DNA of 64,000 nt, taken from the IMG/VR virus record IMGVR_UViG_3300044612_002367, one strand, 5' to 3'. The notes under the pieces are model-generated. The model had not been told where the DNA came from, searched no databases, and was given only the letters and a program-made list of their open reading frames with translations. Positions 14,563 to 33,046 of the stretch are shown in pieces. This DNA is from an uncultured virus (IMG/VR IMGVR_UViG_3300044612_002367). Lineage: Duplodnaviria; Heunggongvirae; Uroviricota; Caudoviricetes. Both the position numbers and the translations under genes were made by a program. The first letter of the stretch is position 1. Every line of letters begins with the position of its first letter.

Positions 14563-14607
14563 GCTGACTATCAGCATGACCAGCAAATCCGGTGGATAAG
14601 GTGATAC
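14563..14607. repeat. Motif B copy 2
   Basis: gctgactatcagcatgaccagcaaatccggtggataaggtgatac. Confidence 0.8.
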
Positions 14608-14746
14608 AGTTGAGTTTATAATGATTGTTATTTATTTTAATTTAGTGATCATAACTCCTTTCCCCACAACCACTTACACTCCATTGTATCGTCACTCCCA
14701 TGGTTGGCACAATAGGCAAAACATATTAACATATTAAAAGCCCCCC

Positions 14747-14790
14747 CTGTCATTTTGGCAGATTTCGCGGGCCGTCTGCCATTTTGGCAG
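14747..14790. repeat. Motif A copy 1 (paired 15-bp palindromic box, 14-bp spacer)
   Basis: ctgtcattttggcag-atttcgcgggccgt-ctgccattttggcag. Confidence 0.95.
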
Positions 14791-15807: not shown

Positions 15808-15902
15808 CTTCTAACCCTTTCGTGTTATCGTTTCTTCGTTCTACTCCACTCATTCTACAATACAGTATCGGTATGTCAAGCGACTGAATTGAGAAAATTT
15901 TT

Positions 15903-15946
15903 CTGCCATTTTGGCAGGCGAGCCGGGGAAGCTGCCGTTTTGGCAG
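15903..15946. repeat. Motif A copy 2
   Basis: ctgccattttggcag-gcgagccggggaag-ctgccgttttggcag; abuts the stop codon at 15947. Confidence 0.95.
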
Positions 15947-16441
15947 CTAAATATTCAGCAGGGGTATCCCCATATCACGCTGGCATATTTTTGACCCACT
16001 AATATCATCACTATATGCACATTCTTTAGGAAGATAACAATATAATCCTATACATTTACTCCTGGGGTGTTCATCTTTGATAGTGCGTTGAATATGCCGA
16101 ATAGTATCGCCACTACATATAAGGTCGTCAAGGATAATATACCTAAAAGGTGCTATTCCCTCTATGGCAAAGTTTGAATAACGTTTTTCTTGTTCCTTTC
16201 TTACTAGAACAATATTTTTATTCAATAGTTCCGCTACTTGTGGAACAACCATAAGGCCGCTACTTCCACAACAAGCAATACTATCAAATTCATCAGAAAT
16301 TTTTCTCAGATCGCATACTGCTTTGATAATAATCTTTGTACGAATCTTATGATTCAATACGTGGCAAGTATGACTAGCGCCTTGAATAATGCCGTTGTCT
16401 GTTTTTCTGATATCTTCAATAGGATTATTCATTATATTCAT
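15947..16441 (-). CDS. Type I phosphoribosyltransferase-domain protein
   Basis: PRPP-binding loop IILDDLICSGDT, preceded by SGL...VA..L...IVLVRK. Confidence 0.8.
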   Translation of the reverse strand: MNIMNNPIEDIRKTDNGIIQGASHTCHVLNHKIRTKIIIKAVCDLRKISDEFDSIACCGSSGLMVVPQVAELLNKNIVLVRKEQEKRYSNFAIEGIAPFRYIILDDLICSGDTIRHIQRTIKDEHPRSKCIGLYCYLPKECAYSDDISGSKICQRDMGIPLLNI

Positions 16442-16446
16442 AGCAA

Positions 16447-16534
16447 AACGGATGGTACGATTCGAACGTACAGAGAAAAGAAGAAAGGATTGTTTTCCTT
16501 ATAATAGATACTTGTCCCACCAAGTTGCATCCGT
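16447..16534 (-). ncRNA. tRNA-like element / pseudo-tRNA
   Basis: Acceptor ACGGATG/CATCCGT, D-like arm ACTTG..CAAGT, perfect T arm GTACG-TTCGAAT-CGTAC; no normal anticodon arm. Confidence 0.6.
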
Positions 16535-16545
16535 CGGAGAAAAGA

Positions 16546-16686
16546 TCAGTCGTCAACCAGTTCTTGAGTTATATTATGATAATAGTTATCCCAATCACTC
16601 TCTACATCTTCCATACTATATTCGTCATCGTCATAAAGATCGTCGGTATCTTCTAGAATACTTTCATAATCATATTCATAAGTCAT
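16546..16686 (-). CDS. 46-aa very acidic peptide (not in ORF track)
   Basis: MTYEYDYESILEDTDDLYDDEYSMEDVESDWDNYYHNITQELVDD; TAAGGAG RBS and TTGACA-N16-TATAAT promoter upstream. Confidence 0.7.
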   Translation of the reverse strand: MTYEYDYESILEDTDDLYDDDEYSMEDVESDWDNYYHNITQELVDD

Positions 16687-16734
16687 AACTTTTCTCCTTA
16701 TTCCCATTATACACCAAACCGGTCAACTGTCAAG

Positions 16735-16806
16735 TAGGCCCGCAGGGACATGCACCCCGTTCAATAGATTAAAAGTCTATTGCATCACTACTAATGCTTC
16801 AGGCCC
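16735..16806 (-). tRNA. tRNA-Lys(UUU), atypical T-loop
   Basis: Cloverleaf; anticodon arm ATAGA-CTTTTAA-TCTAT; T-loop reads TGCATGT; no encoded CCA. Confidence 0.8.
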
Positions 16807-17027
16807 ATGAACGATTAGTTTATTTCCTCATAACTATAACTATCAACCGGGAAAGTTAGTTGCTGCTCAAGAGTAAAGAAAACATCAGTCCAATCAAATC
16901 CTTCATTCATTTCAACAGTAATATCATTCAGATGTTTCTCACCACTCTCCATCACAATATCATAAATACGCAACTTCTTCATTTCTTCTCTCTTTTGGTA
17001 TTATATCCTATCGAACGCCACTGTCAA

Positions 17028-17100
17028 TAGCCCTACGGAGGATCGAACTCCGATCTCCGGGATGAAAGCCCGGTATACTAAACCATTATACTATAGGGCC
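17028..17100 (-). tRNA. tRNA-Glu(UUC)
   Basis: CCGGG-CTTTCAT-CCCGG; T arm CGGAG-TTCGATC-CTCCG. Confidence 0.95.
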
Positions 17101-17234
17101 ACTCACCATAACTCAAACGTCAGCCTCCGTAACCGTATGATACATTATCGAGTTTCCGTTGTCAAGACTTGAGTTGTTTTTTATTCGAAATGGTGTATAA
17201 TAACTTAGCAAATCAATTTCAAGGAGTTTCGATT

Positions 17235-17735
17235 ATGAACAAGTGTCACAACTGTAACAAACAAACACAAAATCCTAAGTTTTGTTGTAGATCATGCTCA
17301 GCATCTTTTAATAATCATAAATATCCTAAAAGATTTCCTTCTCCTAGAGATGTTAAATGTTTATTTTGTAAAAATGAATGTAAAACTAATAAAAATAAAT
17401 ACTGTTCAAAACAATGTTCAATTAATTATAGGCAAAATCTAAAAGATATCATCATACAAAAAGACGGTTTTGGTTGCGGCCATTATCACAATAACACTAT
17501 TAGAAAATATCTAATAAGAACTCATGGCAATAACTGCATGATTTGTGGTTTAGACGCCACCAATTGGAATAATAAACCAATTACTCTTATAGTGGATCAT
17601 ATAGATGGCAAATCAAATAATAACAAATTAAATAATTTACGGATAGTTTGTCCAAACTGTGATTCTCAATTACCAACTTATAAAGCAAAGAATAAAGGTA
17701 ATAGTAGCAGATCGTACTTTATTGTTCAAAAATAG
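17235..17735 (+). CDS. HNH homing endonuclease with N-terminal Cys-rich repeats
   Basis: FCCRSC and YCSKQC repeats, then CMICG...LIVDHIDG..NNKLNNLRIVCPNC; AAGGAG RBS at 17221; the only plus-strand gene in the tRNA cluster. Confidence 0.9.
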   Translation: MNKCHNCNKQTQNPKFCCRSCSASFNNHKYPKRFPSPRDVKCLFCKNECKTNKNKYCSKQCSINYRQNLKDIIIQKDGFGCGHYHNNTIRKYLIRTHGNNCMICGLDATNWNNKPITLIVDHIDGKSNNNKLNNLRIVCPNCDSQLPTYKAKNKGNSSRSYFIVQK

Positions 17736-17831
17736 GGCCAGAGAGAATCGAACTCCCACTTGTAGGTAATCAGCCTACACCTTCCGGCCGGGGTTATAAG
17801 CCCCGTGTGCTAACCATTACACCATGGCCCC
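17733..17831 (-). tRNA. tRNA-Ile(UAU) with very long variable region
   Basis: Acceptor GGGGCCA/TGGCCCT, anticodon arm CGGGG-CTTATAA-CCCCG, 31-nt variable region, T arm GGGAG-TTCGATT-CTCTC. Confidence 0.8.
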
Positions 17832-17839
17832 ATGAACCG

Positions 17840-17881
17840 ATTATACACTGTGTTATCGGCTTGTCAAGTCCCAAAACTTTA
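17840..17881 (-). promoter_or_regulatory. Overlapping sigma70-like and sigma28-like promoter (type example)
   Basis: Minus strand TAAAGTTTTGGGACTTGACAAGCCGATAACACAGTGTATAAT = TTGACA-N16-TATAAT plus TAAAG-N16-GCCGATAA. Confidence 0.8.
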
Positions 17882-17888
17882 GATTTTC

Positions 17889-17933
17889 GCTGACTACAAC
17901 CACCCTGACCGAATCCGTAGGATTAGGCAAGAC
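17889..17933. repeat. Motif B copy 3
   Basis: gctgactacaaccaccctgaccgaatccgtaggattaggcaagac; abuts the tRNA-Ser 3' end. Confidence 0.9.
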
Positions 17934-18019
17934 GGAATCTGAGGGATTCGAACCCCCGGAGGATTTTAACCCTCGGCTCTTTAGTAAAAAGCTGCCTTCA
18001 ACCACTCGGCCAAGATTCC
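17933..18019 (-). tRNA. tRNA-Ser(ACU)
   Basis: Acceptor GGAATCT/AGATTCC, G discriminator, long variable arm, anticodon loop TTACTAA. Confidence 0.85.
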
Positions 18020-18023
18020 TAAA

Positions 18024-18095
18024 CACACGGGGTAGGATTCGAACCTACATCTGACAAATTAACAGTTTGGGGCATTACCATTATGCTACCCGTGT
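18024..18095 (-). tRNA. tRNA-Asn(GUU)
   Basis: Loop CTGTTAA; T arm GTAGG-TTCGAAT-CCTAC. Confidence 0.9.
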
Positions 18096-18113
18096 TCATT
18101 ATGTAACCAACTA

Positions 18114-18184
18114 TTCCGGGACTACGATTTGAACGTAGAATAAAGGATCCAAAGTCCTCTGTGATACCGTTTCACCATCCCGGA
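18114..18184 (-). tRNA. tRNA-Gln(UUG)
   Basis: GAGGA-CTTTGGA-TCCTT; acceptor TCCGGGA/TCCCGGA. Confidence 0.9.
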
Positions 18185-18185
18185 G

Positions 18186-18257
18186 AGCCGACGAAAGGAT
18201 TTGAACCTTCAACCTATTGATTACAAATCAATTGCACTACCGTTGTGCTACATCGGC
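18186..18257 (-). tRNA. tRNA-Thr(UGU)
   Basis: ATTGA-TTTGTAA-TCAAT; acceptor GCCGATG/CGTCGGC. Confidence 0.95.
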
Positions 18258-18730
18258 AAGACTACATATCATACTCATCTCGCCAACTTTTGTCAATATC
18301 GTGCCGTGTTCGTTGACGCTTGGGCCTGTTGTCCATAGACGTATCCCGGCGATCTTCTCTGTGACCCGTAGAGATTTCCCAAGGCTGTTTGGTTTTGACC
18401 TTGAACTTGCCGTACTTGCGGCGTGGCCTCATATCGTCGTTGTTGTGGAGCGTAATCATACCATTGACCATTTTCGTGTAAATAAAAAACCTTATCTAAA
18501 TTAGGATCGTACGCCATTAAACAGTATTGTACCGGATAAACTGTTTTTGTCAATTGTTTTTGTTTTGGTATTTGTGGTAGGTGTATCTCACCCTTTTGAT
18601 AATCTTTTACACTATTCCACACAAATCCTAACAAAGCAATCGCTACTCCTACCCACTGTATCATACGCTCTCCGTTTGTCAACCGTCGTTTCATAATCTT
18701 TTATCGGTTGTCGATGGCTAAAACTTTAGT

Positions 18731-18774
18731 CTGCCTTTTTGGCAGATGGGCCGCGGAGGCTGCCGTTTTGGCAG
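18731..18774. repeat. Motif A copy 3
   Basis: ctgcctttttggcag-atgggccgcggagg-ctgccgttttggcag; abuts the stop at 18775. Confidence 0.95.
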
Positions 18775-19000
18775 CTACTCCAGTTTCCACCCCGCCAACT
18801 TAGCCACTTTACTTAAACTAATTACCTTAGTTTCTTTATCAGCAGTAATATAATCTCTATACCCACGCTCATCAACATAAAAGTACTCATCTAATACATC
18901 AAACTGGTTAGTTTCCCACAATGCAATTTGAGCAGCCTCAACCGGCTTAGAATTAGGAGCAGAATAAATCAACTCTAAACTACCACACTTAATATAATAT

Positions 19001-19597
19001 TTAGACATTGTTATACCTCGCTCTACACTGTTCACAATAACAGTCGCTATCTTCGTCACCATCCCAACAAACTTCCGGGAAATTATCTCCATCATCACTT
19101 ACACTTTCAGCACCGAAGTCGATGGGGACAATAATTCTTTTATCTCCACGTTTGACATACCCAAGATTATTAGGGTGAGCATCATTATAACTCAATCCAT
19201 AATTATCACTAATATCTCCTAGCATATCTTGTATAGAAGAATAGTTTTCACAAAGATCGCAATGAGCACAATCTCCATCACAATCTTCACTATCACAAAA
19301 ATATGTACTAGCAATTTCGGTCAAATAACCCCAATCGCTCAAAACCATATGAGTAACAGCCTTGATACCGCCGCGACCGTCGCTAGTTGCAAAATAATTA
19401 GGAACTCTAATTTTACAAACCGGACTATAAACTTCAGGAGCAAGATAAGGGGCTAGTTCACTTTGCACAGCATGAGCAAAAGTAGCCAGACTCTTATTAG
19501 GGAATCCCTTGAATCCGTACTTTTTGCCTTTTACTTTATAGAAAGTATTTTTGCTACCACTACCCGAAAACTTACCAACGTAACTATACTTATTCAT
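19001..19597 (-). CDS. Protein-kinase-like (PKL fold) protein
   Basis: Gly-rich GSGSK, GFK, catalytic-loop-like DAHPNNLG, IDFG; Cys/Asp-rich insert. Confidence 0.65.
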   Translation of the reverse strand: MNKYSYVGKFSGSGSKNTFYKVKGKKYGFKGFPNKSLATFAHAVQSELAPYLAPEVYSPVCKIRVPNYFATSDGRGGIKAVTHMVLSDWGYLTEIASTYFCDSEDCDGDCAHCDLCENYSSIQDMLGDISDNYGLSYNDAHPNNLGYVKRGDKRIIVPIDFGAESVSDDGDNFPEVCWDGDEDSDCYCEQCRARYNNV

Positions 19598-19608
19598 TGT
19601 AAAAATTC

Positions 19609-20319
19609 TTAGTGAGCAGGAAAAAGCACGTTAGCCAGACCACGCGGACACAAATCACAATGTACGCTATTCTTGGTTTTTGTGCAAGTCACAACGCCAC
19701 GACCACGACGAATTTCCGGACAAGTAATAAACTTTTCACCCTCTAGCACAACCAGTTTCGGCAATGTTTTACGCCATGCGTCAGCCTTAGCCTTACTACG
19801 CGGACGCTTGGGGGCAATCTTAGTATCACTATCACACCATGCGAAATGCTTGAAACCAGCGGCTTTGGCTTGTTTCATATCTTCACCATCGTGGATACTA
19901 GCATACATATTTATATACTTGCCAAGTTCAAGAGACAGTCGAGTATCATAAATATGGGTATAGGCCCACATGGTCGGCAGACTACCACCACTAGCAAGAA
20001 TACTTTCACAAGCCCACAATACATTATCAACGTACTCATTATCAAGTTTGCCATCCTTGAAAAAGTCGCCACGCTCGTGCCAGCGAACATCTTTATTTTT
20101 CTTGACAGCATCTACAAGCATAGAACGAATACGATTTTTTTCCGTGATAAGATTTTGCATACCAGCGGGACGAACACCGGGATAGATATTTTCCAAGTCC
20201 TCAGCATAGCAACCATTACCGAGAAAATCACAATCGGGCGGGCAAGTATCGCCAACCGGGCGACTAACAACTATGCAGTTTTCCTTGCCCAACTTATCAT
20301 TACCATTTGCAGTTTTCAT
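19609..20319 (-). CDS. GP88-like (radical-SAM-related) phage protein
   Basis: GNDKLG, TCP..C....GCYA, VRWHERGDF, WAYT, C-terminal CP..TC..C..C..FPAH. Confidence 0.6.
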   Translation of the reverse strand: MKTANGNDKLGKENCIVVSRPVGDTCPPDCDFLGNGCYAEDLENIYPGVRPAGMQNLITEKNRIRSMLVDAVKKNKDVRWHERGDFFKDGKLDNEYVDNVLWACESILASGGSLPTMWAYTHIYDTRLSLELGKYINMYASIHDGEDMKQAKAAGFKHFAWCDSDTKIAPKRPRSKAKADAWRKTLPKLVVLEGEKFITCPEIRRGRGVVTCTKTKNSVHCDLCPRGLANVLFPAH

Positions 20320-20393
20320 CTTTTTTCTCCGTGTCTCAGTATTCTACACTAGAGTATCGGCTTGTCAAATGAAAAAACTTGAAAGAATTTCGT

Positions 20394-20437
20394 ATGCCAT
20401 TTTGGCAGATGGGCCGCGGAGCCTGCCATTTTGGCAG
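20394..20437. repeat. Motif A copy 4
   Basis: atgccattttggcag-atgggccgcggagc-ctgccattttggcag; 3 nt from the tRNA-Asp 3' end. Confidence 0.95.
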
Positions 20438-20440
20438 AGG

Positions 20441-20514
20441 CGAGAGCGACGGGACTTGAACCCGCAACCTTTAGCGTGACAGGCTAACGATCTAACCAAT
20501 TGATCTACGCTCCC
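20441..20514 (-). tRNA. tRNA-Asp(GUC)
   Basis: TTAGC-CTGTCAC-GCTAA; canonical arms. Confidence 0.95.
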
Positions 20515-20517
20515 AAA

Positions 20518-20589
20518 TAGCCCCAGGAGGAATCGAACCTCCAATAACTGCTTAGAAGGCAGTTGTTATATCCATTTAACTATAGGGCC
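20518..20589 (-). tRNA. tRNA-Arg(UCU)
   Basis: ACTGC-CTTCTAA-GCAGT; T arm GGAGG-TTCGATT-CCTCC. Confidence 0.95.
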
Positions 20590-21271
20590 GTGTTTCTATT
20601 ATAACATAACCCACTCAATGCCGCAAGCCCCTATGGCGTCCCATAGAGGCTATACGGTTTGATGGTGGAGCCACTTTACCATCGTTATATTACTAGTAGC
20701 AGACCCCTTCCCAGCAACCACTCTGGTTATTAGTTGGTTAGACTCTACTAGGTGGGTATTGCCCACATATTACGCGGGAAGTTATCCCGCCGCACTATGC
20801 CTAAAATCTATTTATACTGGCATAGTCCAGTTTGTCAATTCAGGCAACAGCCTCCGCTTCCGCCTTGCTGTTGTGAGCGTCACCAGCCTGCTCGGCAGTA
20901 ACGCCAGTCACCCTAGCACGCCAAACCTTGTAACCCTGCTCGCTAAAACTCTTGACCTCGCCAGCCTTGACATTCGCATGAACATCACCGGGCAGACTAT
21001 CGCTCAGGCAAGAACGAATCGACTCCACAACACCATCACGATCAAGATCATCAGCAACAACATCAACAACAAAAGAAAACTTCTTCATAGTAAACCCTTC
21101 CAAGTTAGTGTTATCAACCAAGTAAACAGATTATACAAACCACTCATCACTTGTCAAGAGCCAATCCGAACTTTTCTTTGCGTTGGGATCGTTTGGCGTC
21201 TTGTCGTGTGATGCTATCATCATACCATAGAGTATCGGCTAGTCAACAGCATCTCGTGAATATTTTTTGCT

Positions 21272-21315
21272 CTGCCATTTTGGCAGCCGGGCCGCGGCGC
21301 CTGCCGTTTTGGCAG
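21272..21315. repeat. Motif A copy 5
   Basis: ctgccattttggcag-ccgggccgcggcgc-ctgccgttttggcag; abuts the stop at 21316. Confidence 0.95.
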
Positions 21316-21705
21316 TTATGAGAGATAACCCTCACAACCCAAACCAGCAAGATCACGCAGCAACTTTTCAGCCGCCTCGGGAGTCTTGAGAGTAATACTC
21401 TGCTTCGCACCAGCAGAGGCAGGAACGAACTTGTCGTACTTCCAACCGCCCACCAGAGCATCCGTCCAATCCTTGCTTTCCTTCAAGCCCCATCCGGTGT
21501 GGAGTCGAATAGCCTTTATGCAAGAGATACGATTGTCCAGATTCATTCCGTTCGTGATGGTAATGGTACGATTCTGGTTCACGCCCAACTCCATCTCAAA
21601 GGCGTTCACGATCTTGTGATACAGTTCGACATCGTTGTTGTATGCCCAACTAGTAGCCAGATTCATAGCCTCACGAACACTCAGTTGCAGATTAATCATA
21701 TTCAA
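21316..21705 (-). CDS. Protein with ribosomal protein bL12 (L7/L12) C-terminal-like domain
   Basis: RISCIKAIRLHTGWGLKESKDWTD..EAAEKLLRDLAGLG resembles bL12 CTD KIxVIKxVRxxTGLGLKEAKxLVE. Confidence 0.7.
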   Translation of the reverse strand: MNMINLQLSVREAMNLATSWAYNNDVELYHKIVNAFEMELGVNQNRTITITNGMNLDNRISCIKAIRLHTGWGLKESKDWTDALVGGWKYDKFVPASAGAKQSITLKTPEAAEKLLRDLAGLGCEGYLS

Positions 21706-22177
21706 ACCCTTTCTTCCAAAATATAAACTTGTTTGCCGTTAGTCAGTAAAGTAGCGTATTCGCTATCGTCCCAAACGAATTCGTTGCTATCGCTTTCTCG
21801 TCGCCAGAACGGATCGCGGATTGGATTATAGTATAACTTTTCAAGATTGTCAACAGGCAAAAGTGGATGAAAATCTTTTCGTAACATCAATTCTTCACAT
21901 CTTACCCATCCACTCACATCATGCACACCAGCCTCAAATACCTTTTTAGCCTTATTAGGCTTATTTATTAATCTACAACCCCTCATTTCCAACTGATATT
22001 CAGCAGGATTATAATAATAAACATCAACTTTCTTACTACCACGCATGACTTTTAGTTGCCAATGCATGTAGTTAGCCCCACTGCTCAAATGGAATCGTAC
22101 TTCGCCATGTAGTGGTTTTGTTTTCATGCTACTAGCATACCTTATCGACCAATCGTTGTCAAGATCATTAATTTCTC

Positions 22178-22222
22178 GCTGACTATCAGCACGACCGGCA
22201 AATCCGTAGGATTAGGAAAGAC
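22178..22222. repeat. Motif B copy 4
   Basis: gctgactatcagcacgaccggcaaatccgtaggattaggaaagac. Confidence 0.9.
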
Positions 22223-22366
22223 AAGAGGATCGGGTTATGCCATACTCGGCCTTGCATTTAACCGCGGCTTCTTTGATATCATTTTGCCAACGGCCCGCAT
22301 CCACTTGTCCCTTAAGTATACTATTAGTATCGGAATGGTCAAGAGAAAGATTTAAAAAATTTTGGT

Positions 22367-22410
22367 ATGCCATTTTGGCAGATGGTGCGGCCCGGCCGCC
22401 ATTTTGGCAG
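22367..22410. repeat. Motif A copy 6
   Basis: atgccattttggcag-atggtgcggcccgg-ccgccattttggcag. Confidence 0.95.
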
Positions 22411-23698
22411 TTAGTTACCTACATACCACCAATGGCATTCAGCACAAAAATACCATAAGATGCCATAGTTATGATCATACTTGTATGCTAGTATATCACA
22501 TTTTCCACATGGACAAATATCACTAAGAGTTTTCATAAACTAACTCCACATACTTATCCACAAGTTCGGAAACTGCAATCTCATGGGTAGAAATAAGTTC
22601 TTTAACTTGGCTTACATTTTGCTTATTCACAGCCGCCATTCTATTCCTGAAAAAACTAAGAATATAGATCATGGCTTTTTCTCTATCGTTAGTCATACAA
22701 CCCCTTAGTATATTCTTCTGGAATAATCGGACACCAACTCTTTGCTCGTTCCTCGTCGTAAGGAAGCCAGAACGGAGCATCACAAGCATCAACAACTCCA
22801 AATTTTTCGTTAGTGAAAATATGGGGGCAAAGGTCTATCTTTTTTTCTTCATTAACTTTCAAGCCATTTTCATCGTAATGATATGGAAAGAATCCCCTGT
22901 CCTCTTGATAAGAATAGTGTCCAATCCCGATACCAATATGCGGCCCAAAGTAATAAATCTTCTGTCCAACCTCTGGTGGATTCTTATGAGAGTTAAACCA
23001 TTCCATTACTTGTATACCTCTATCTGCCACCTACCATATTTGAGTTCAGCAGTAACACTCATACCCAACTTAACCAGTTCGGATACGATTTCGGCCAATC
23101 GCTCAATCTCATTAATATTAAGATAGATCATTTTCCCCTCACAACTACCAAACACTTTGTACCAGTATCCCCATCGGTATACTTCACACATTCATGAGGC
23201 CCGTAATACCAAGCATCATTCTTAGAGAAGTTGAACACAATCTCTTCGGTCTTGAGTTCGGTATCATTATACCCACCCTCATACCCAAGAGTCAATACCC
23301 TCATATCGCCGGGATAGTTCTTCAACTGCTCAATAAGTTCACTTACAGTCATTACCAATCCTCCGGCATAGGAATCTCTTCAAAACCAATATAGCATACC
23401 ACTAACGAATTGTCAAACTGATCCCATTCCAACATACCATCATCATATTCACCGTGCCACCAATCACCCCATCCACCCTCTTCCTTATTCCAAGTAAGAT
23501 CAATAGGAGATGAATATCCCTTCACACAACAAAGATATTTCTGATTAACAACAGGATTATCATAATGCCAGTTCATTATTTCCACCTAAAACTAAAGTGT
23601 GTAGACTGCCCGACATAACCAACAAGTTTTCACTTGTTCTGTAATCATTCTACTATGTAGTATCGGCCTGTCAACTAAAAAAATCCACAAAAATTTTT

Positions 23699-23742
23699 CT
23701 GTCATTTTGGCAGTTTTCGCGGCCCATCTGCCACTTTGGCAG
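23699..23742. repeat. Motif A copy 7
   Basis: ctgtcattttggcag-ttttcgcggcccat-ctgccactttggcag. Confidence 0.95.
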
Positions 23743-23918
23743 TTATTCAGGGTCTATTGGTTCATCAGTGTAGTATTGAGAGTCGGTCAAAACGCTAGGC
23801 TTGAACTTGCTAAGTTTTGTCTTTTTGCAATCAGCACAAACTCTAGCCAGGGGAATACCTCTAGCATCACTCTCCCACCAACTATTCTTACCAGAACCAC
23901 AAGAACAATACTTGATAA

Positions 23919-24428
23919 TCATGCTTCTACCTCATCACCAAAAAATTCTTCCATACCAAATTCATTCCACAATGCAACAGGAATCATATCCTTAGTAGTA
24001 TACTCACAATAATTATCAGCACCATTATCCCAAATTCCACAAAAGGCCATTCCAGGCCCCCAATAACTAGCCTTTACATCATATCCCAACTCTACCAGTT
24101 TATTATACAAACCGATTGGAGGAGCCCAGGCACTATCAAAACTACAATTAGCCTGATTACCAACCCTAGTAGCCTTCAAGCCGTATCTTTCTTCTTTGTC
24201 CGTACCCATATCAGCACCAATATCCCACTTAGTTCCCCAGTTATTTACACACCAATTATACCAATAGTTTGGATCATTTTGATCTAGGATAATATCGCCG
24301 CTCTCATTTTTAGGAACGGGCAAATAATGCTCACAAACATTACCAGCGTTATAAGCATCAACAAATTCCTTCAACTTAGAAGGATCATTATGCTCAACAG
24401 TCAATTTGTTCATGCACCAGTTTGGCAT
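23919..24428 (-). CDS. DUF1281/Api92-like ferredoxin-like fold protein
   Basis: MPNWC.N, WYNW...NWGTKWD and FDSAWAPP signatures. Confidence 0.8.
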   Translation of the reverse strand: MPNWCMNKLTVEHNDPSKLKEFVDAYNAGNVCEHYLPVPKNESGDIILDQNDPNYWYNWCVNNWGTKWDIGADMGTDKEERYGLKATRVGNQANCSFDSAWAPPIGLYNKLVELGYDVKASYWGPGMAFCGIWDNGADNYCEYTTKDMIPVALWNEFGMEEFFGDEVEA

Positions 24429-24716
24429 ATTTTTACCCTTTAGTTAGAACTACCACACACAGCACTATGCTTTTGCTCATTCAACTTTTTCATAATCAAA
24501 GTTGTAGTAGTCTCTTTCAACTCCAACACCGTATCAAACTTGATCTTATGCACAGCCTTATTGGTACTAGGAGTTTCAGCCACAGCACAAACCAGAGTAG
24601 CATACTCCATCATGATACTAGCAATCTCGTCACGAATTGTATGATTACGAGTCATTGTTTTTCTCCTCTTTGGTCTAGTCTACACTATCTTTTATCGGTT
24701 GTCAAGAGCACAAAAT

Positions 24717-25166
24717 TTAGGCTGCACCCGCAAGAGTCTTTCCATTAGAATAATACTTATTCCGGCGAAGTTTCTTCATCATGGTCTTTTTGGTGAAAGT
24801 CTTAGTCTTGATACCGTTAGGGGTGATATAGACCAAAACAATCTTATCAAAATTCTTAGTCTTGATATTCTGGAACTGATAAAAATGCCGACCACTAGGC
24901 AACTGACGAGCCAGAGAAGACTTGACTTCAACACGTTGACCATCAACCAGCATATCAAAAGGATTGGTTCCCCCGATATACTTAACCCTCCGACCTTGCA
25001 TAATCAACTTATCCCTAATCATCTTCTCCACAATAGCACCACGATGCTGATTGTTCAGTCGAGACAGACTATAGGACAAACGGCTCTTTCGCACAGAAAA
25101 CACACTCTTGCTGCTCAGTCCCTTGATTTCCCCCAAAACCCGATTCATGTGCTTCAGCGTGAACAT
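24717..25166 (-). CDS. Putative PD-(D/E)xK endonuclease
   Basis: G...E helix followed by PFDMLVDGQRVEVKSS; very basic. Confidence 0.6.
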   Translation of the reverse strand: MFTLKHMNRVLGEIKGLSSKSVFSVRKSRLSYSLSRLNNQHRGAIVEKMIRDKLIMQGRRVKYIGGTNPFDMLVDGQRVEVKSSLARQLPSGRHFYQFQNIKTKNFDKIVLVYITPNGIKTKTFTKKTMMKKLRRNKYYSNGKTLAGAA

Positions 25167-25269
25167 TATCGTTTTCCATTATCTTTGAGGTTAGTTGATC
25201 ATCCCTTATGTAAGCCTCATTATATGGATTATCGGCATCTTGTCAAGAAAAATTTGTCGAAAAAAATAA

Positions 25270-25313
25270 CTGCCATTTTGGCAGTTTTCGCGGCCCGGCT
25301 GCCAATTTGGCAG
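25270..25313. repeat. Motif A copy 8
   Basis: ctgccattttggcag-ttttcgcggcccgg-ctgccaatttggcag. Confidence 0.95.
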
Positions 25314-26143
25314 GCCAAAACCCCCTCAAAAGAGGAGGCTGGCCAAGCCGGTCTTCATCAATACATCCCCCATAGGAAATCGACGAACATTAGTAGCACG
25401 TTCAGCATAAAACTGTCGAATCTTACCATCAAACGTCTGGCAAGTTACCAGATGATGAGTACGCTTAAAGATTGAATCGTGACGACGATAACTGCTAGTA
25501 CGATCCAACTTTCTAATAGTCTCATCGCTCAACGTATAAACAGGCTCAATAACCTTAGCAAGAATCCTTTGACGCTCACCATGAAAAGGCTGCTCATAGT
25601 CAAAATTATATACTTCACCAACCTTAGCAGTGCTAAGACTACCATGAATGCCGTTGTAAACATTCAAAGCGAGAATAAACAGCAAAGCAGCAATACCAGC
25701 AACAGCAGCAATACCAATATAAACCATATCGTTCATTATCAAACCCTTTCGTTATTGAAAACCTTTTCCACCAGTATACTCTATTATCGACACTTGTCAA
25801 GCCGCCGCTTTAGAAAAATTTTCGCTCCAAAATTCGGCAACTTCATGCAGATTCACAGCACTATCATTCCATGCCACACCATCCGGTGTTTCGTATGCGA
25901 TAGCAGAGTTGATATCCATCTCTCGCAACCTAGCCTTAAAATCATTATAGTTTTGACATACGGCCGCGAATTCGTTCAGACCTTCATCATTACTAATCCA
26001 TAAACAAACATTCCAAGTCTGATAATTAGCGTAGCCGTTATAGGTTCCGTCAGGACTCATTTTTCTACCCTTTCAATTAGAGGTATGTCCTAAGTATATC
26101 ATCATAATCGGCAAATGCAAGAGGGAAAATTTAGAAAAAATGT

Positions 26144-26187
26144 CTGTCATTTTGGCAGTTTTCGCGGCCCATCTGTCATTTTGGCAG
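26144..26187. repeat. Motif A copy 9
   Basis: ctgtcattttggcag-ttttcgcggcccat-ctgtcattttggcag; supplies the TGA stop of ORF 26176-26433. Confidence 0.95.
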
Positions 26188-26737
26188 ATAGGTTATTTCT
26201 TGTCCATTTTCAATCATAGCGGAGTATGCTGCTATCCGCTTATCCTTTTCACGTTTTTCGATTTGATGATCGGTTTCGCCGATCTCTAACGAATCACACT
26301 TGCGTTCAAGATCGGCCAATGAAACACTATCGGTACGATTATCACGAAAGTTTTCGGGCAGCCAATCATTAGGAATCAGAATAACATCCTTGATAATCCG
26401 ATCAAACTCTGCGAGCAATTCATAACCGTTCATTTTACTTCCTAATAAAAAGTGCTTCGATCTCTAAAAACCAATGATAGCCTATAAATGCAAAAAACAC
26501 AAGAGCAATCACGACTTTTTTATCCTTTCGGTCAATCCGCTTGGATGATGAATCACGATCCATCCCTCGTCCGCTTTTTTAATCATTTCCGTTGGCGTTG
26601 GGCCTTTACGATTCTTCCAGTATTCTTTCGCTTGAATCCTAGCCAAATAAGCATCATAATCGTTTTTCATTGTTCTCTCCTGATGAATAGATTATACATT
26701 TAGAATCGGCATTGTCAACAAAAGAAAACGGTTTTTC

Positions 26738-26782
26738 GCTGACTACAGCCCATATAGCCAAATCCGTAGGATTAGATGGGAC
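26738..26782. repeat. Motif B copy 5
   Basis: gctgactacagcccatatagccaaatccgtaggattagatgggac. Confidence 0.9.
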
Positions 26783-27080
26783 AGTCAGGAGACTCCCATC
26801 CAAATTGCATTTTCCAGACAGTAATCATAAAACATATCGTTCAATACTTCGTAGCAATTGTTTTCCGTAATCCTACGACGATCAAAAGTGGACTCACACT
26901 CGGCATACAGTTTGCCATCAACGGTCAAAATCAGACTCACATTATGGCTTTCATCAGCCCAAATTTGCTTCAGCGTATCACGAATCTTAGTGGTGTCCAT
27001 TTTCTTCTCCTTTGCTTTTGTTATCGGTATTTTACCAACAAACTCTTGAATGTCAAATAAAAAAAATGAAAATATTTAGT

Positions 27081-27124
27081 ATGCCATTTTGGCAGTTTGG
27101 CCGCGGCGCCCGCCATTTTGGCAG
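27081..27124. repeat. Motif A copy 10
   Basis: atgccattttggcag-tttggccgcggcgc-ccgccattttggcag. Confidence 0.95.
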
Positions 27125-27341
27125 GCTAATTATTAGTTAATCAAATAGGTTACAATACAACCAGTGATAAAGCACATAAAAATAAAAATCATCTTCTCTT
27201 TATTATTCATATTATTCCTTTACTGGAAAAACAAGATCATGAACAAGATAAGAACCAAAAATGCCAACAATAAATCCCACACTCACACTCACCCAATTTA
27301 TATCGAACATCCGTGTTCCCTTTCTTTAGTTTAGTTTTTTC

Positions 27342-27386
27342 GCTGACTACATCCACCACATCCAAACCCGTAGGGTTAGGTGAGAC
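27342..27386. repeat. Motif B copy 6
   Basis: gctgactacatccaccacatccaaacccgtagggttaggtgagac; palindrome changed symmetrically to AACCC/GGGTT. Confidence 0.9.
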
Positions 27387-27609
27387 AGTCACCACCCGTC
27401 GCTAATCGCCTGTCTCTTTTGAGAACCGCGAGTACGCAGTCTCTTGGTTCGGTTGTCGTGCTGCCCGCTACCAGACCGATGCTCGCTATGGCCGTGTCCA
27501 ATTTCCCACAACGGACGAACATTCAACTTCACGACGATTTTCTTATTCTGCTTGCTCATAACTTTATCCTACCATAGTTTATCGGCTTGTCAATACGAAA
27601 ACTTTAGAT

Positions 27610-27625
27610 AGCAAATATCGTGCCA
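27610..27625 (-). promoter_or_regulatory. sigma54 -24/-12 element
   Basis: Minus strand TGGCACGATATTTGCT matches TGGCACG-N4-TTGCW exactly. Confidence 0.7.
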
Positions 27626-27663
27626 ATTTGGCAGAAATCGCGGCCCGCCTGCCATTTTGGCAG
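27620..27663. repeat. Motif A copy 11
   Basis: gtgccaatttggcag-aaatcgcggcccgc-ctgccattttggcag. Confidence 0.95.
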
Positions 27664-28969
27664 TATTATTACTCACTCAGTAATATTACAATATGTTAGA
27701 TTATTAACCAAAATACTCTTGATAAGCCCATCGTCCTGCTTAATTACAAGCATTTCACCCTTAGCGGGATTAGTAGATGGCCAACTCCAAACATCAATAA
27801 TAACACCAGTAAAAATACGACCATCTTTACGCTGACCAGTGAAACGTTTGTTGTAATGTTCACGCATACTCATTATTACTTCTCCGCTCCTACCACCATA
27901 CCATCCATGAAAGGATAACTCTTGTCGTCAATCTTTACAAACCACTCAAAATTCTTCTGGTAAACATATCGCGGACTATACTGGTTGATTCTATCCTTAG
28001 TGGTCAGAGTCTGCCATCCACCACTATTCAGAGTGTAGGTATTGTCGGGATGAATCTTCACAACGTAGGTACTGTGCAGCATAATCCCCACGCTACCATC
28101 GCTCAGAATTTCAGCGTAGGTATTGTTTCCAACCTTGCGACGATTAGCATTACGCTTGCCACGAACCATAGATACCGCTTCGGAATGAATCATTTTCAAC
28201 GCTCCGTATAGTTAGTGAGTTCGTTCTGATTGAAGATACCGTGCTGGCCGTTTTCGTCAACTACAAAAAACACAATCAGCGGCTTTCCGTTCTCGATGAT
28301 AACGTCGAAAGTATTCACGTGAACCTTTGCACCACTCAGCGTCGTAGCGTGAATCACAACGTCGGTAGTTGAAGCGTTCATTTGTTTTTCCTCTTTCCTT
28401 TATATCGACATTCTACAGGGGAAACTTTAGTTGTCAAGAGCAATTTTTGCAGCGTCCAAAATATGCTGAACGGTCAAATCTTTGTAGAGAACCATTGGCA
28501 ATTCCAAAATCTTTCCATAAGACTTAGGATCGTCAGTATCCCTAAGAACCGTAATATCTTTACGATACGCACCCGTATAATCCACATATCGACGCAAAAC
28601 AAATTCAACGTCTTTTGGATCATACACGCCCTGCTGAAAACCGTCATAATAAACTTTAAATTTCATATTTCTTTCTTCTACTTTCTAAGTTCAGCACGTT
28701 CCCTAGCATACCGATACATGGCACGTTCGTCAACCATGAATCTTTCTACACCCTTCAAATCCTTGAAGTTCCAATGGTAGGTGAGAACGTCAGACCTGAC
28801 CATCCAATGGGCTTCGATGTCCGAAGTCTTTTTCAGCGTATATCCCAGCTTGTTCAGTTCTTTTGCAATCGTCTTGCTATTCATCTTCTTCTCTTTTTCT
28901 TTCTCTTATATCGGTATTTTACTCATCAAACTTGAGAAGTCAAATAAAAAAAATGCCTAAAATCTTTGC

Positions 28970-29013
28970 CTGCCATTTTGGCAGTCGCCGCGGCCCGCCT
29001 GCCATTTTGGCAG
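28970..29013. repeat. Motif A copy 12
   Basis: ctgccattttggcag-tcgccgcggcccgc-ctgccattttggcag. Confidence 0.95.
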
Positions 29014-29440
29014 TTACTTTTTTGCGGCCACCTTTTCCTTTATCATTTCATTATAAAGTTTACTTAGATTTTCAACGTGAGCAATCGCTCTATTAGTTTC
29101 CCGATTCATTCGTTCCAAGGCTTTTTGATAATTACTAATCTTTTTCTTTTTCATAACTCACTCAAAATCCACAAAAATAACCTGATGATAACCGCGAGGC
29201 TTAATAGTAAGGCCAGTATCATAATCGAACGTATCAGCCTTTACACCCGTCATACCGGCCAAAGCCTTAGCCTGTCGAGTGATATTGTGTTGAGCAGCCG
29301 AGCGGCTAATAGTAAACTCGTGCCGATTCACCCAACCATAATTAGGCTCACCACCAAAAGTATCAGTATGAGTTACAATAACCTTCATCATCTTATTATT
29401 CCTGTTAGTAAAGTAAGAATCGATCCAATTTTTAATATCT

Positions 29441-29773
29441 TCAGTCTTCATAATAACCGTATCCATCATCACTGTGAAAATCCTCACGATCATCACCATA
29501 ATAACCATAATCCTCATCGGTTCCCCATCCCGCAGAAGTCATCGCGGAATCGTGGTCGCCATCCATACTATCATCATACGAATCATCCCAATCGTTCTCC
29601 TCGTTTTCCTCATCATAACCTTCATCTTCATTCATTTGATCACGGATTTCATCCAGTTCATTTTCTGGCAAACCCCAGAAATCATTGTGGTCATCATAGT
29701 TCTCATCTTCGATCATCATATCATCATCCTCCATAGAGTTATCGGGATCATACAATGGATCGGGGTGACTCAT
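29441..29773 (-). CDS. Extremely acidic 110-aa protein
   Basis: MSHPDPLYDPDNSMEDDD...DHDSAMTSAGWGTDEDYGYY; AAAAGGA RBS before the ATG at 29773. Confidence 0.75.
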   Translation of the reverse strand: MSHPDPLYDPDNSMEDDDMMIEDENYDDHNDFWGLPENELDEIRDQMNEDEGYDEENEENDWDDSYDDSMDGDHDSAMTSAGWGTDEDYGYYGDDREDFHSDDGYGYYED

Positions 29774-30073
29774 GACTTGTTCCTTTTCAACTAACGTACC
29801 ATACTTCGCCGCTGTCGTCAACCATTTCCTGCGGCTCGAATTCTTCCACAATGCCCACAACATCTGCCCAATCCCAAAAATTCACTTCCACGTTAGGATC
29901 GTCAATCGGCTCCACCATCGGCTCGATCATGCCCTCGTCGGCCATAGCGTTAAGAACAGCGTTCACTTGATCGAAATCGTGAAACATGATCTTTTCTCCG
30001 TTGTGATGCTTTGATTCTACATTAGGTATCGGCAATGTCAACTAAAAAAATTAGCGGCAAAAATTATTTTTTG

Positions 30074-30089
30074 TGGCACAACATTTGCA
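30074..30089 (+). promoter_or_regulatory. sigma54 -24/-12 element
   Basis: TGGCACAACATTTGCA (GG-N10-GC). Confidence 0.7.
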
Positions 30090-30093
30090 CTGC

Positions 30094-30137
30094 CTGCCAT
30101 TTTGGCAGCCCGGCCGCCCCGCCTGCCATTTTGGCAG
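30094..30137. repeat. Motif A copy 13
   Basis: ctgccattttggcag-cccggccgccccgc-ctgccattttggcag. Confidence 0.95.
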
Positions 30138-31073
30138 TTATCCTTTTAGGGCCATGTAACTAATAGTAAAACAGAATAGTAACAATAATAGTATACTACT
30201 ATTAGTCATCACCCCTCCAAGAGAAGGGGCTAACTTCCTCACCGCTAGCCATGATAGCAGCATACTGCTGTGCTAAAGCCTCTTTACGTTCAGCATTACC
30301 AGGCTTACCAACGGGGATAATCATAGTATCATCGCCACCATTGTAGCGAGGATCGACCTTTTCGACCTTACGCTTGCCAATCTTTCGCAAAGCCTTGCGA
30401 TTGAACTTTAATACCTTTTCACTACGAATCGGCCCGTATGTACCATCGGCCAGACTAGGCTGGTGGGGAATTGCAATTCCAAGAAAGCACGACAGGATAA
30501 CACGGTCAGCATCAATCAGAATTTGTGGCTTACTCATTTATTTTTCTCCAAAGGATGATGGATTGTAGAAACCTATAGACTACCTTGCAACCCCCCGAGT
30601 TAGGTAGCAGACACAAATCCTGCATCTTCCAACTTCAAGCATGAAACACAATCTTGAAGGTATAGACTACGATACTTCATCGTGCCAGTAGGATAATGCT
30701 TCATGGCTACAGTGAACATATGTCCCTTTGGCAAATCACGAACCAGAACAACTCGACCATCGTACTTTTTACCGTTCTTATGATCGACAACTACCATATC
30801 ATTCACGCTGACCATTGTAGTATTCTCTTTCTTTCTAGGGTTAGTTGCTATCGGGATCGGTAGGATCGGAAACATATTCCAGAATAGGGGTACAATGCTC
30901 AAGGCAGCATGAGCAAATATCATAACCCCTAATTTCATCACCACAGCAATCGGACGTAATCACTTCAATCATTCTCATTTCAATTCTCTCTTTCCTTTTC
31001 TCTTATATCGACATTATACATAGGCATACTTGAATGTCAACTAAAAAAAATCGTAGATAAAAAATATTTTCTT

Positions 31074-31116
31074 TGGCATGATATTTGCTATGCTAGAGTT
31101 TGGCATGAGATTTGCA
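31074..31116 (+). promoter_or_regulatory. Two tandem sigma54 -24/-12 elements
   Basis: TGGCATGATATTTGCT (31074-31089) and TGGCATGAGATTTGCA (31101-31116). Confidence 0.7.
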
Positions 31117-31120
31117 GCGC

Positions 31121-31164
31121 CTGCCATTTTGGCAGTTGGCGCCCGCGGCCTGCCATTTTGGCAG
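31121..31164. repeat. Motif A copy 14
   Basis: ctgccattttggcag-ttggcgcccgcggc-ctgccattttggcag. Confidence 0.95.
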
Positions 31165-31754
31165 TTACCCCTACTTCAGGGGGTATGATCCGATCCAGTC
31201 GATATGTTGAATCCACTCCCTAGCATACGGCGTACCATGCCTTTTCCGAATCAAACGGAGTTGAGAAGCCAACTCCCCTCTATATGATGGGTGCGATCCC
31301 CTGCGAACCCATTCACCGATCCACTTATTCGCGGGAACCGCCACTAGCATACTAATATCGAAAAAGTTCATCGTAAACCCTTTATTTGGCCCCCATTATG
31401 GGGGAGACTATAAGTACCCTAATAACTGCTAGTCTATCATCGACCAGGAAGGGCCGGAAGAGCAAAATCGCTCATGGCATAATTGTAGCACTCATCGAGA
31501 TAGACACTAGCGTGCTTGCCAGTATCCGACAACTTGACCACGACAAGCGTACCTTTCATGCCCATACTCTTGACATTCTGAATCTGACCGATGAAATTCT
31601 TATCATCACGATTCCGAATCGCGGAAAAATACATACCGGGAACAGGCTTCATCATCACTCACTCTCTCTTTCTTATACCACGATTATACATTAGGTTATC
31701 GGCAAATCAAGAAAAGAAAATCAGAAAAACTTTCTGAAATTTTTCCCATCATTT

Positions 31755-31770
31755 TGGCATACAGTTTGCT
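31755..31770 (+). promoter_or_regulatory. sigma54 -24/-12 element
   Basis: TGGCATACAGTTTGCT (GG-N10-GC). Confidence 0.65.
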
Positions 31771-32401: not shown

Positions 32402-33046
32402 ATGAAGAAAAAGAAAAACCTCAAAACCAAAACCAAAAAATCCAAAAATAATATAGTTCCTGATGATCAGTTTTTACAAGCTGTTGATAATATTAGCAAA
32501 AAATTAGCCTATAAATTTAAATTTGGATATCATGATCATTCTGATATGAAGCAGCAAATAGCCATATTTGCCCTAGAAGGATTAAAAAACTATGATGGAA
32601 TAAGACCCCTAGAAAACTTTTTATGGACCCACGTTAGAAATCGACTGTTTAATTATAAAAGGGACAACTATCAAAGACCCAACAAACCCTGCTTAACTTG
32701 CCCACTATACGATCCTAATAATCAAACTTCTAAAAGTCAATGTTCCAAATATACTGATAAAAGTGAATGTGATTTATATGCTGGTTGGAGTAAAAGAAAT
32801 ACTACTAAAAAAAATCTAGTATATTTAACGGGAGTAGAGGATTTTTCATTGGTCCCCAAAACACATTCTGTTAATTTCGATAGTTTAGTATCAAACAAAG
32901 AGATACTAGATTTATTAGACTCTGAACTAAGTGGAGAAGAAAGAGAACTATATTTAAAGTTTAGGGGAGGGGCTAAAATAAATAAATCTGATATGAATAA
33001 ATTATTAATTAAAATACGATATATATTAGGAACCTCTAATGGCTAA
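32402..33046 (+). CDS. Phage sigma-70-family-like transcription factor
   Basis: Region-2-like DMKQQIAIFALEGLKNYDGIRPLENFLWTHVRNRLFNYKR, Cys insert, LSGEERELY region-4 start; first large gene of the late module. Confidence 0.6.
   Translation: MKKKKNLKTKTKKSKNNIVPDDQFLQAVDNISKKLAYKFKFGYHDHSDMKQQIAIFALEGLKNYDGIRPLENFLWTHVRNRLFNYKRDNYQRPNKPCLTCPLYDPNNQTSKSQCSKYTDKSECDLYAGWSKRNTTKKNLVYLTGVEDFSLVPKTHSVNFDSLVSNKEILDLLDSELSGEERELYLKFRGGAKINKSDMNKLLIKIRYILGTSNG

Follow-up and report, generated by a model that had tools for sequence, protein, structure and literature searches.

One important question raised by the 64,000-nt sequence of an uncultured Caudoviricetes virus (IMG/VR record IMGVR_UViG_3300044612_002367; the whole stretch is hereafter called the window) is what role is played by motif A, a 44-nt element that recurs among its early genes. 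Motif A is a double palindrome consisting of two copies of the box CTGCCATTTTGGCAG separated by a 14-nt G+C-rich spacer. A first-pass annotation had noted that the element lies flush with stop codons and tRNA ends, had likened it both to integron attC sites and to the promoter/stem-loop (PeSL) cassettes of T4-type phages, and had suggested that units made of promoter, genes, stop and element are acquired, excised or reordered at it. The results described here lead to rejection of the integron reading and support the PeSL-like reading, and they favour an operator-like double site over a terminator as the explanation of the element's conserved core. With moderate confidence, and from sequence comparison, we propose that motif A is a tandem regulator site which heads a repeated early-gene cassette and doubles as homology for gene shuffling.

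The window was scanned with the 15-nt box, allowing up to 2 mismatches, and 100 shuffles were used as control. A total of 29 matches were obtained against 0.10 expected, and none of the 100 shuffles reached 29. Fourteen box pairs with a start-to-start distance of exactly 29 nt were found between 14747 and 31164, all of them in the same orientation (TTTT on the plus strand); the scan detected no pair elsewhere in the 64 kb, and no Rfam family matched motif A. Thirteen copies fall within the range 15903..31173 originally assigned to the element, whereas the copy at 14747-14790 lies outside it. The G+C content of the motif A stretch is 0.36-0.46, against 0.31-0.34 in the neighbouring DNA. Genes lie on the minus strand from position 1 to ~32.3 kb and on the plus strand from 32.4 kb. 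Read along the gene strand, the cassette consists of a stop codon, the element, an A/T-rich stretch (mostly 23-26 nt) and a promoter of the form TTGACA-N16/17-TAnAAT, often with CCGATA in its spacer. A -35/-10 pair follows 13 of the 14 elements, the distance being 16-26 nt in 11 cases and 52 and 80 nt in the other two. The copies, together with the promoter after each, are listed here (ORF, open reading frame; G2 and G3 are two related contigs):

14747..14790, minus strand: motif A copy 1; canonical terminator 14839-14804 precedes it and only a weak promoter follows
15903..15946, minus strand: copy 2; flush with the TAG of a 164-aa phosphoribosyltransferase-like ORF; promoter 15852..15879 (minus), sigma-70-type, TTGACA-16-TAGAAT
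18731..18774, minus strand: copy 3; flush with the TAG of ORF 18775..19098 (107 aa); promoter 18655..18682 (minus)
20394..20437, minus strand: copy 4; tRNA-Asp end 1-3 nt away; promoter 20341..20368 (minus)
21272..21315, minus strand: copy 5; flush with the TAA of a 129-aa ORF; promoter 21219..21246 (minus)
22367..22410, minus strand: copy 6; flush with the TAA of a 41-aa ORF; promoter 22315..22342 (minus)
23699..23742, minus strand: copy 7; flush with the TAA of a 59-aa ORF; two indels break here (G2, G3); promoter 23647..23674 (minus)
25270..25313, minus strand: copy 8; stop 12 nt upstream; promoter 25219..25246 (minus), 12 of 12 consensus positions
26144..26187, minus strand: copy 9; right box gives the TGA of an 85-aa ORF; partner in the element-to-element deletion of G2; promoter 26093..26120 (minus), TTGCAT..TATACT, read by eye
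27081..27124, minus strand: copy 10; second partner of the G2 deletion; promoter 27029..27056 (minus)
27620..27663, minus strand: copy 11; the proximal box, with the bases that follow it, makes up a -24/-12-like motif on the gene strand (27610-27625); promoter 27566..27593 (minus)
28970..29013, minus strand: copy 12; flush with the TAA of a 46-aa ORF; promoter 28916..28943 (minus), one arm of a 46-nt promoter-promoter recombination
30094..30137, minus strand: copy 13; flush with the TAA of a 41-aa ORF; promoter 30014..30041 (minus), 52 nt from the element
31121..31164, minus strand: copy 14; TAG 31171 and then the in-frame TAA 31165; gene-replacement breakpoint in G2 and G3; promoter 31013..31040 (minus), 80 nt from the element, 12 of 12 consensus positions

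The eight minus-strand stop triplets that had been reported directly after the right box were all present (CTA at 15947 and 18775; TTA at 21316, 22411, 23743, 29014, 30138 and 31165), i.e. at 8 of the 14 copies. Not only the first three but seven of them close an ORF (15947, 18775, 21316, 22411, 23743, 29014 and 30138), the TAA at 31165 being a second in-frame stop of ORF 31171..31371, which is already closed by the TAG at 31171. It was also confirmed that the right box of copy 9 itself supplies a TGA (26176-26178) that ends ORF 26176..26433, and that the tRNA-Asp ends at 20439 (ARAGORN) or 20441 (Rfam), 1-3 nt from the box end at 20437. Stops lie 5-12 nt off at copies 8, 10 and 11, and 72 nt away at copy 1, with the canonical terminator 14839-14804 in between. 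Among the 207 distinct copies of the phage family retrieved with their context, 47 carry a flush stop triplet, compared with 3-20 at offsets 1-8, and an ORF heuristic classified 27 of 200 copies as flush (TAA 12, TAG 8, TGA 7). Since all three stop codons are used, flushness is a matter of position and not of a conserved TAA. Coding sequence would be unable to enter the constrained boxes, and genes and the tRNA end would come to lie flush with the element, or up to 12 nt from it, because the phage genes are packed tightly against a constrained site.

In order to place the element in a wider context, IMG/VR was scanned with the motif A pattern, which yielded 119 loci on 57 contigs. Five complete relatives (as judged by CheckV) measure 138-224 kb, two of them with terminal repeats, and contain 4-10 strict copies each; all 36 strict copies are co-oriented within their own genome and confined to 10-13 kb. 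The contigs G2 and G3 share 92-99% identity with the window across 14-31 kb and ~70-78% in the late genes. Near-identity of the early 14-31 kb next to diverged sequence at 32-37 kb (loci L124 and L125) suggests that diverged phages have recently exchanged the entire early arm. Comparison of the window with G2 and G3 revealed 13 indel or replacement events, of which 4 touch motif A and 7 touch the element-spacer-promoter cassette. The units concerned include the following:

26188..27124, minus strand: unit of ~937 nt with genes, promoters and one element, missing in G2 through a crossover between copies 10 and 9
23743..23920, minus strand: 59-aa gene, an exact fit between the previous stop and copy 7; 16 nt in its place in G3
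31164..31658, minus strand: two genes; 638 unrelated nt in their place in G2 and G3
28438..28897, minus strand: unit of two genes, missing in G2 and G3 through recombination between promoter repeats of 46 nt
25819..26129, minus strand: unit of a promoter and an 87-aa gene, present in the window only; 10-nt repeat in the A/T spacers at both bounds

After the ~937-nt deletion a single element is kept in G2, the first box of which is of the copy-9 type, the crossover having taken place somewhere in the first 11 nt of the right boxes. The replacement at 31164-31658 is bounded on one side by the first base of copy 14's right box and on the other by the ribosome-binding site belonging to the first early promoter. 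G2 also lacks 23742-24416, and here an 11-nt match links the box to a gene start that happens to read ATGCCAAACTGG; a third cassette event without motif A is the replacement of 23354-23607, which starts in a 5' untranslated region. The junctions thus differ in position, falling in the box, the A/T spacer, the promoter or at gene starts, and homology of 9-46 nt accompanies them. In distant relatives, 93 of 430 usable ends of high-scoring segment pairs (HSPs) lie no more than 5 nt from an element edge, where 7.3 were expected and 2000 simulations gave at most 16 (53 of 258 against 4.4 when only the 21 loci of at least 3.5 kb are considered), figures whose weight is lessened by the facts that the loci were found through the element itself and that the null is generous. 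The HSP ends near elements lie on the right (71), on the left (22) or inside (3), and such an excess of right over left is as expected if the whole element-spacer-promoter unit is the conserved repeat. The gene-content breakpoints of the relatives therefore coincide with the element; gene order is not the same throughout, nor are the breakpoints unrelated to motif A. The suggestion that units are gained or excised at the element holds for the element-to-element deletion and for the replacements flush with the right box, but the mobile unit is bounded by the whole cassette and not by the 44-nt element alone.

These breakpoints bear on whether motif A is a site for site-specific recombination, comparable to an integron attC, at which a dedicated recombinase would excise or insert units of promoter, genes, stop and element. 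The flush stops at 8 of 14 copies, the breakpoints located exactly at the right-box edge (23742 in G3; 31163 in G2 and G3) and the G2 unit deleted precisely between two elements are in favour of this, and integron arrays share with the motif A array a repeated element in one orientation directly after stops and a variable gene content between elements. An attC site is defined by imperfect inverted repeats (R''-L''...L'-R'), conserved core sites and extrahelical bases. Integron cassettes are promoterless, depend on a common promoter and come with an integron-type tyrosine recombinase (IntI). When motif A was read against this definition, two identical 15-bp palindromes and a 14-nt spacer were seen, with neither attC cores nor the R''/L''/L'/R' anatomy. 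Moreover, the array has no integrase and no fixed crossover point, the cassettes are not promoterless, each unit having its own promoter, the junctions differ in place and carry homology, and a flush stop is found in only 23% of the family copies. The first-pass annotation saw no recombinase in the window, in agreement with the absence of tyrosine (PF00589) and serine (PF00239) recombinases among 83 window ORFs (Pfam) or 19 (PHROGs); the genome-wide search for these enzymes that it recommended, run on the five complete relatives, gave 0 of 5. Because the junctions are varied and homologous, the units self-promoted and the attC anatomy lacking, membership of the integron family is excluded, and we regard a site-specific recombination site as very improbable.

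Homologous recombination is in better agreement with the junctions. Because the cassette recurs 14 times as direct repeats, it would supply homology for general recombination, which may be aided by a phage RecA-family protein and complemented by microhomology events; gene units would thereby be deleted, inserted or replaced with breakpoints at the cassette edges. A RecA-family protein of 337-341 aa, in one case within a longer frame, was detected in all five complete relatives, whereas RecT, ERF and AAA_24 were each found in 0 of 5. Contigs from four lake-water DNA runs were also inspected, and many joints at element edges were obtained, but their short sides were only 20-46 nt long with 90% likeness. 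Such joints come from related phages or repeats and therefore provide no evidence for circles or excision.

The PeSL cassettes of T4-type phages are composed of a stop codon, an A/T-rich region, a sigma-70 early promoter and a stem-loop, and excision takes place between flanking cassettes, mini-circles arising by exchange between them (Arbiol et al. 2010, PMC2839356; Comeau et al. 2014, PMC4122927). The comparison with these modules made in the first-pass annotation fits. PeSLs share with the present cassette the stop, the A/T stretch, the strong sigma-70-like promoter and the palindrome, all among small ORFans; indels between close relatives are bounded by cassettes in both systems, the excision topology is matched in G2, and PeSL phages have a RecA-family recombinase of their own, as do the five complete relatives. 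PeSL stem-loops, however, are heterogeneous polyG/polyC hairpins in five positions, whereas motif A is one fixed double 15-bp box that is always upstream of the A/T stretch, is conserved across the 57 IMG/VR contigs, gives no evidence of terminator action and matches a bacterial operator-like motif. The stem-loop of a PeSL is present in motif A as a predicted fold only, without covariation.

The bacterial counterpart was sought in one genome per species, using the double box with up to 1 mismatch and the same 14-nt spacer length. Near-perfect double boxes were found in 3 Gemmatimonadota genomes, two of them Longimicrobiales by record title. The box is present in 39 of 301 sampled Gemmatimonadota genomes, about 22 of which have 3-26 sites (0-1 per genome in a reversed-pattern control). 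Outside the phylum, samples of 121 Bacteroidota and 121 Pseudomonadota yielded a single box-bearing genome each, which is the control level. Two matches in a Pseudomonadota metagenome-assembled genome (MAG) were discarded as single boxes within an unrelated repeat. The bacterial boxes occur in clusters of 2-6, in either orientation and also between divergent genes, upstream of dnaK (3), clpB (4), lon (2), hsp20 (1) and some other genes. In these clusters (loci L143, L144, L133, L150-L159 and L162-L169) the boxes read CTGCCA(A/T)4GGCAG and are helically phased: 30 of 34 spacings are 21-22, 29-32 or 41-42 nt, with a mean resultant length of 0.75 at a 10.5-bp period, although these are loci of related genomes and hence not independent. 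Sites in helical phase are typical of proteins that sit on one face of duplex DNA, and the spacing points to such binding here. The clusters look like the operator of a stress regulon. They have in common with the phage array the identical 15-bp box, the tandem copies and, among their spacings, 29 nt, but in the bacteria orientation and spacing vary (21, ~31 and ~42 nt) whereas both are fixed in the phage. L128, a 1985-nt contig titled as a Planctomycetia MAG, carries a variant of the double box, CCGCCCTTTTGGCAG-N14-CCGCCCTTTTGGCAG, whose spacer is rich in A.

The main competitor of the regulator-site reading is the possibility that motif A acts as RNA, as a stem-loop ending the early transcription units (a terminator, attenuator, processing site or 3' stabiliser), with shuffling again by homologous recombination. 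The flush stops would then represent a minimal 3' untranslated region, and the element does sit after stop codons and a tRNA; the D5/D6/D8 hairpin repeats of the region (a second intergenic family, listed below) lie after stops as well. Each box is palindromic (6 bp/3 nt), and pairing between the two gives a long hairpin, predicted as the minimum free energy fold in most of nine stretches. PeSL stem-loops proved to be effective terminators experimentally in phi1/RB49 (PMC2839356). An intrinsic terminator, however, consists of a G+C-rich hairpin with a U tract directly after it; motif A has no U tract, and only 1 of 14 copies was flagged as terminator-like on the gene strand, whereas canonical terminators are found elsewhere, at 14839-14804 (13 nt before copy 1) and at 31949-31920. 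Half of the box, TTTGGCAG, is almost invariant and the other half variable in the 207 copies, and such invariance across diverged phages is not needed for a plain terminator. Among 182 distinct 44-mers, with 12 possible pairs, no compensatory cells were detected for the local hairpins; for the long hairpin there were 3-4, every one in the outermost pair. Departures from pairing on the mRNA strand comprise 128-135 mismatches against 16-17 G-U pairs, and mutual information revealed neighbour effects only, with no long-range covariation, spacer pairing included. Identical boxes upstream of bacterial genes, helically phased and in either orientation, also count against an RNA element. Since the sequence is invariant without compensatory change, lacks a U tract and recurs as phased bacterial boxes, a regulator-binding site is preferred over a terminator hairpin, and we consider the RNA stem-loop possible but doubtful.

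A different role is suggested by motifs resembling the -24/-12 promoter of sigma-54. The sequence TTTGGCAC-N5-TTTGCT, the textbook -24/-12 consensus, abuts 62 of the 207 copies on the plus strand, copies 13 and 14 included; these 62 have TGGCA-N6-TTGCW ahead of the left box, at a distance of 2-5 nt in 55 of them. The window contains five such motifs (27610, 30074, 31074, 31101 and 31755) against 0.73 expected:

27610-27625, minus strand: -24/-12-like motif, proximal box of copy 11 plus the next bases
30074..30089, plus strand: TGGCAC-N5-TTGCA, sigma-54 consensus-like, abutting copy 13
31074..31116, plus strand: two tandem -24/-12-like motifs, abutting copy 14
31755..31770, plus strand: -24/-12-like motif and a half-box; they lie upstream of 31683-31710, the first early promoter

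The boxes could accordingly bind an activator within a sigma-54-type enhancer/promoter module, the adjoining TTGGCAC-N5-TTGCT being a real -24/-12 promoter for antisense or rightward transcription from the early-region head. In the five complete relatives (G004-G008), 27 of 29 matches to TTGGCAY-N5-TTGCW lie in or just beyond the element cluster, at its promoter-proximal end, i.e. the head of the early region, and a TGGCACG-N4-T(T/C)GC motif follows the boxes in 3 Gemmatimonadota genomes, ahead of dnaK (3 genomes), hsp20 and lon. Against this module, the phage motifs mostly face into the element and against the genes, they occur in both orientations and in 1-3 copies, 145 of the 207 copies have none, and no strict motif was seen at clpB, lon or the other box pairs examined in four further Gemmatimonadota genomes. 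The TTTGGCA of the motif is in 29-nt register with the boxes, so that it may be just a third half-site next to the left box. Such a module would comprise tandem activator sites ahead of a GG-N10-GC promoter together with an AAA+ activator. A Sigma54_activat domain (PF00158) was detected in 0 of 5 complete relatives; genes for bacterial enhancer-binding proteins lie 4-21 kb from the bacterial boxes. The sigma-54 module is therefore judged unlikely. A broader and tentative proposal combines several of these elements: the boxes might be the operator of a bacterial chaperone/protease regulon (dnaK, clpB, lon, hsp20) that a phage lineage copied before its early promoters, 14 operators per genome, which would put the early units under a host stress regulator or titrate that regulator during replication, with sigma-54 antisense or rightward transcription at the early-region head and with the repeats doubling as a recombination scaffold. 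If titration occurs, host chaperone and protease levels would be re-set as the phage DNA replicates.

The explanation preferred here is the tandem regulator site. Along the gene strand, two 15-bp palindromic boxes 29 bp apart are followed by an A/T-rich, UP-like spacer of ~23-26 nt, a consensus sigma-70 promoter and small genes, and we infer that the boxes are bound by a sequence-specific DNA-binding regulator encoded by the host or by the phage. Conservation without compensatory change in the phage and helical phasing of the sites in the bacterial clusters are features of an operator, and binding is predicted from them.

Several observations weigh against this interpretation. Both boxes vary in the same half and are thus directional, which a symmetric dimer does not predict. 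The element adopts a bipartite hairpin of 12 bp on either strand (-19 to -32 kcal/mol), albeit with z-scores of only -1.2 to -2.7, and its high conservation leaves covariation little room, so that a hairpin role retains some likelihood. No binding protein was identified, Sigma54_activat being absent from the relatives as stated, and the neighbourhood of the bacterial boxes yielded no regulator gene; the candidate ORFs there are non-homologous, belong to no family and are probably spurious frames in G+C-rich DNA. The box-bearing bacteria have 64-72% GC against 31-46% in the phage; the host link is therefore doubtful, Gemmatimonadota are not claimed as hosts, and the shared box could be a convergence. 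In 18.5 kb, 20 minus-strand promoters match the consensus at 11 or more of its 12 positions, and about half of the strong promoters in the region lack motif A, some being preceded by a D5/D6/D8 hairpin repeat and others by nothing. Finally, 6 of the 13 indels are unrelated to the cassette: they involve an HNH endonuclease/tRNA, an extra tRNA, microhomologies of 9 and 19 nt inside genes, an acidic gene that varies, and an insertion between genes.

Other known operators resemble motif A in part. In cluster A mycobacteriophages, which are temperate, the immunity repressor binds stoperators, each a single asymmetric site of 13-17 bp. Like motif A, they are many short sites in short intergenic gaps near stop or start codons, oriented with transcription; unlike them, motif A is doubly palindromic and coupled to promoters, and no integrase was seen in its phage. 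CIRCE/HrcA and HAIR/HspR are palindromic operators of bacterial heat-shock regulons, and their sequences differ from the motif A box. A literature search by sequence string and by topic, which left the supplements of the PeSL papers aside, returned no description of the motif or of a heat-shock-type operator of this kind.

The observations extend PeSL-type shuffling beyond T4-type phages to a widespread lineage of large uncultured lake phages, with complete relatives of 138-224 kb, and the actual junctions point to homology-driven gain, loss and replacement of early genes. The integron idea is replaced by a testable one, a conserved double site identical to a motif before the chaperone and protease genes of a bacterial clade. 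If a host regulator binds the boxes, early transcription of the phage would be linked to host stress control, and the boxes would offer a handle on the host of an uncultured phage group as well as on a heat-shock-type operator for which the literature searched holds no description.

The D5/D6/D8 repeats (plus strand) have the form TCGCTGACTA...AATCCGTAGGATTAGG...GACAGTCA; they lie after stops, with the TGA partly within the repeat, and ahead of promoters, and show a nested hairpin fold. They are found at the following positions:

11339-11386, plus strand: D5/D6/D8 repeat
12475-12522, plus strand: D5/D6/D8 repeat
14352-14407, plus strand: D5/D6/D8 repeat
14557-14612, plus strand: D5/D6/D8 repeat
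17883-17938, plus strand: D5/D6/D8 repeat
22172-22227, plus strand: D5/D6/D8 repeat
26732-26787, plus strand: D5/D6/D8 repeat
27336-27391, plus strand: D5/D6/D8 repeat

The HNH endonuclease gene (17169..17735, plus strand) adjoins a 99-nt tRNA match at 17733-17831; the event involving it spans 17129-17827, a place taken in G2 by 71 different nt that resemble a tRNA. A further tRNA-like insert, of 78 nt, is present in G2 at 20517/20518. A Pistol ribozyme match was obtained with Rfam at 20768-20831 (minus strand; 56.5 bits against a gathering score of 34.5), directly downstream of ORF 20840..21121 and upstream of tRNA-Arg and tRNA-Asp, and the homology blocks of many relatives stop at 20840.

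A megablast of the window against the INPHARED phage collection gave no close match, only a 64-nt tRNA. The first gene of the rightward operon (32402-33046, plus strand) shows a weak match to sigma-70 region 2 of the extracytoplasmic function (ECF) type (E 0.002-0.004, below the cut-offs), and its product may be a phage sigma factor. The late genes recognized beyond it are:

35153-37186: terminase, from a weak PHROGs/Pfam match
37236-39416: portal, from a weak PHROGs/Pfam match
54187-63999, plus strand: tape-measure ORF, from a weak PHROGs/Pfam match (PhageMin_Tail, PF10145); at least 3271 aa, with no stop before the window ends

The length of the last ORF implies an unusually long tail. A hairpin promoter for an N4/crAss-like virion RNA polymerase was considered and dropped, the giant ORF being the tape-measure protein. 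A protein with an Mtd_N domain is encoded at 43248-44099 and one with an FGE-sulfatase/C-type-lectin-like domain at 47142-48848, with 15/18-nt tandem repeats (47389-48039) ahead of the latter domain; together with the repeats, these proteins may form a variable receptor-binding module.

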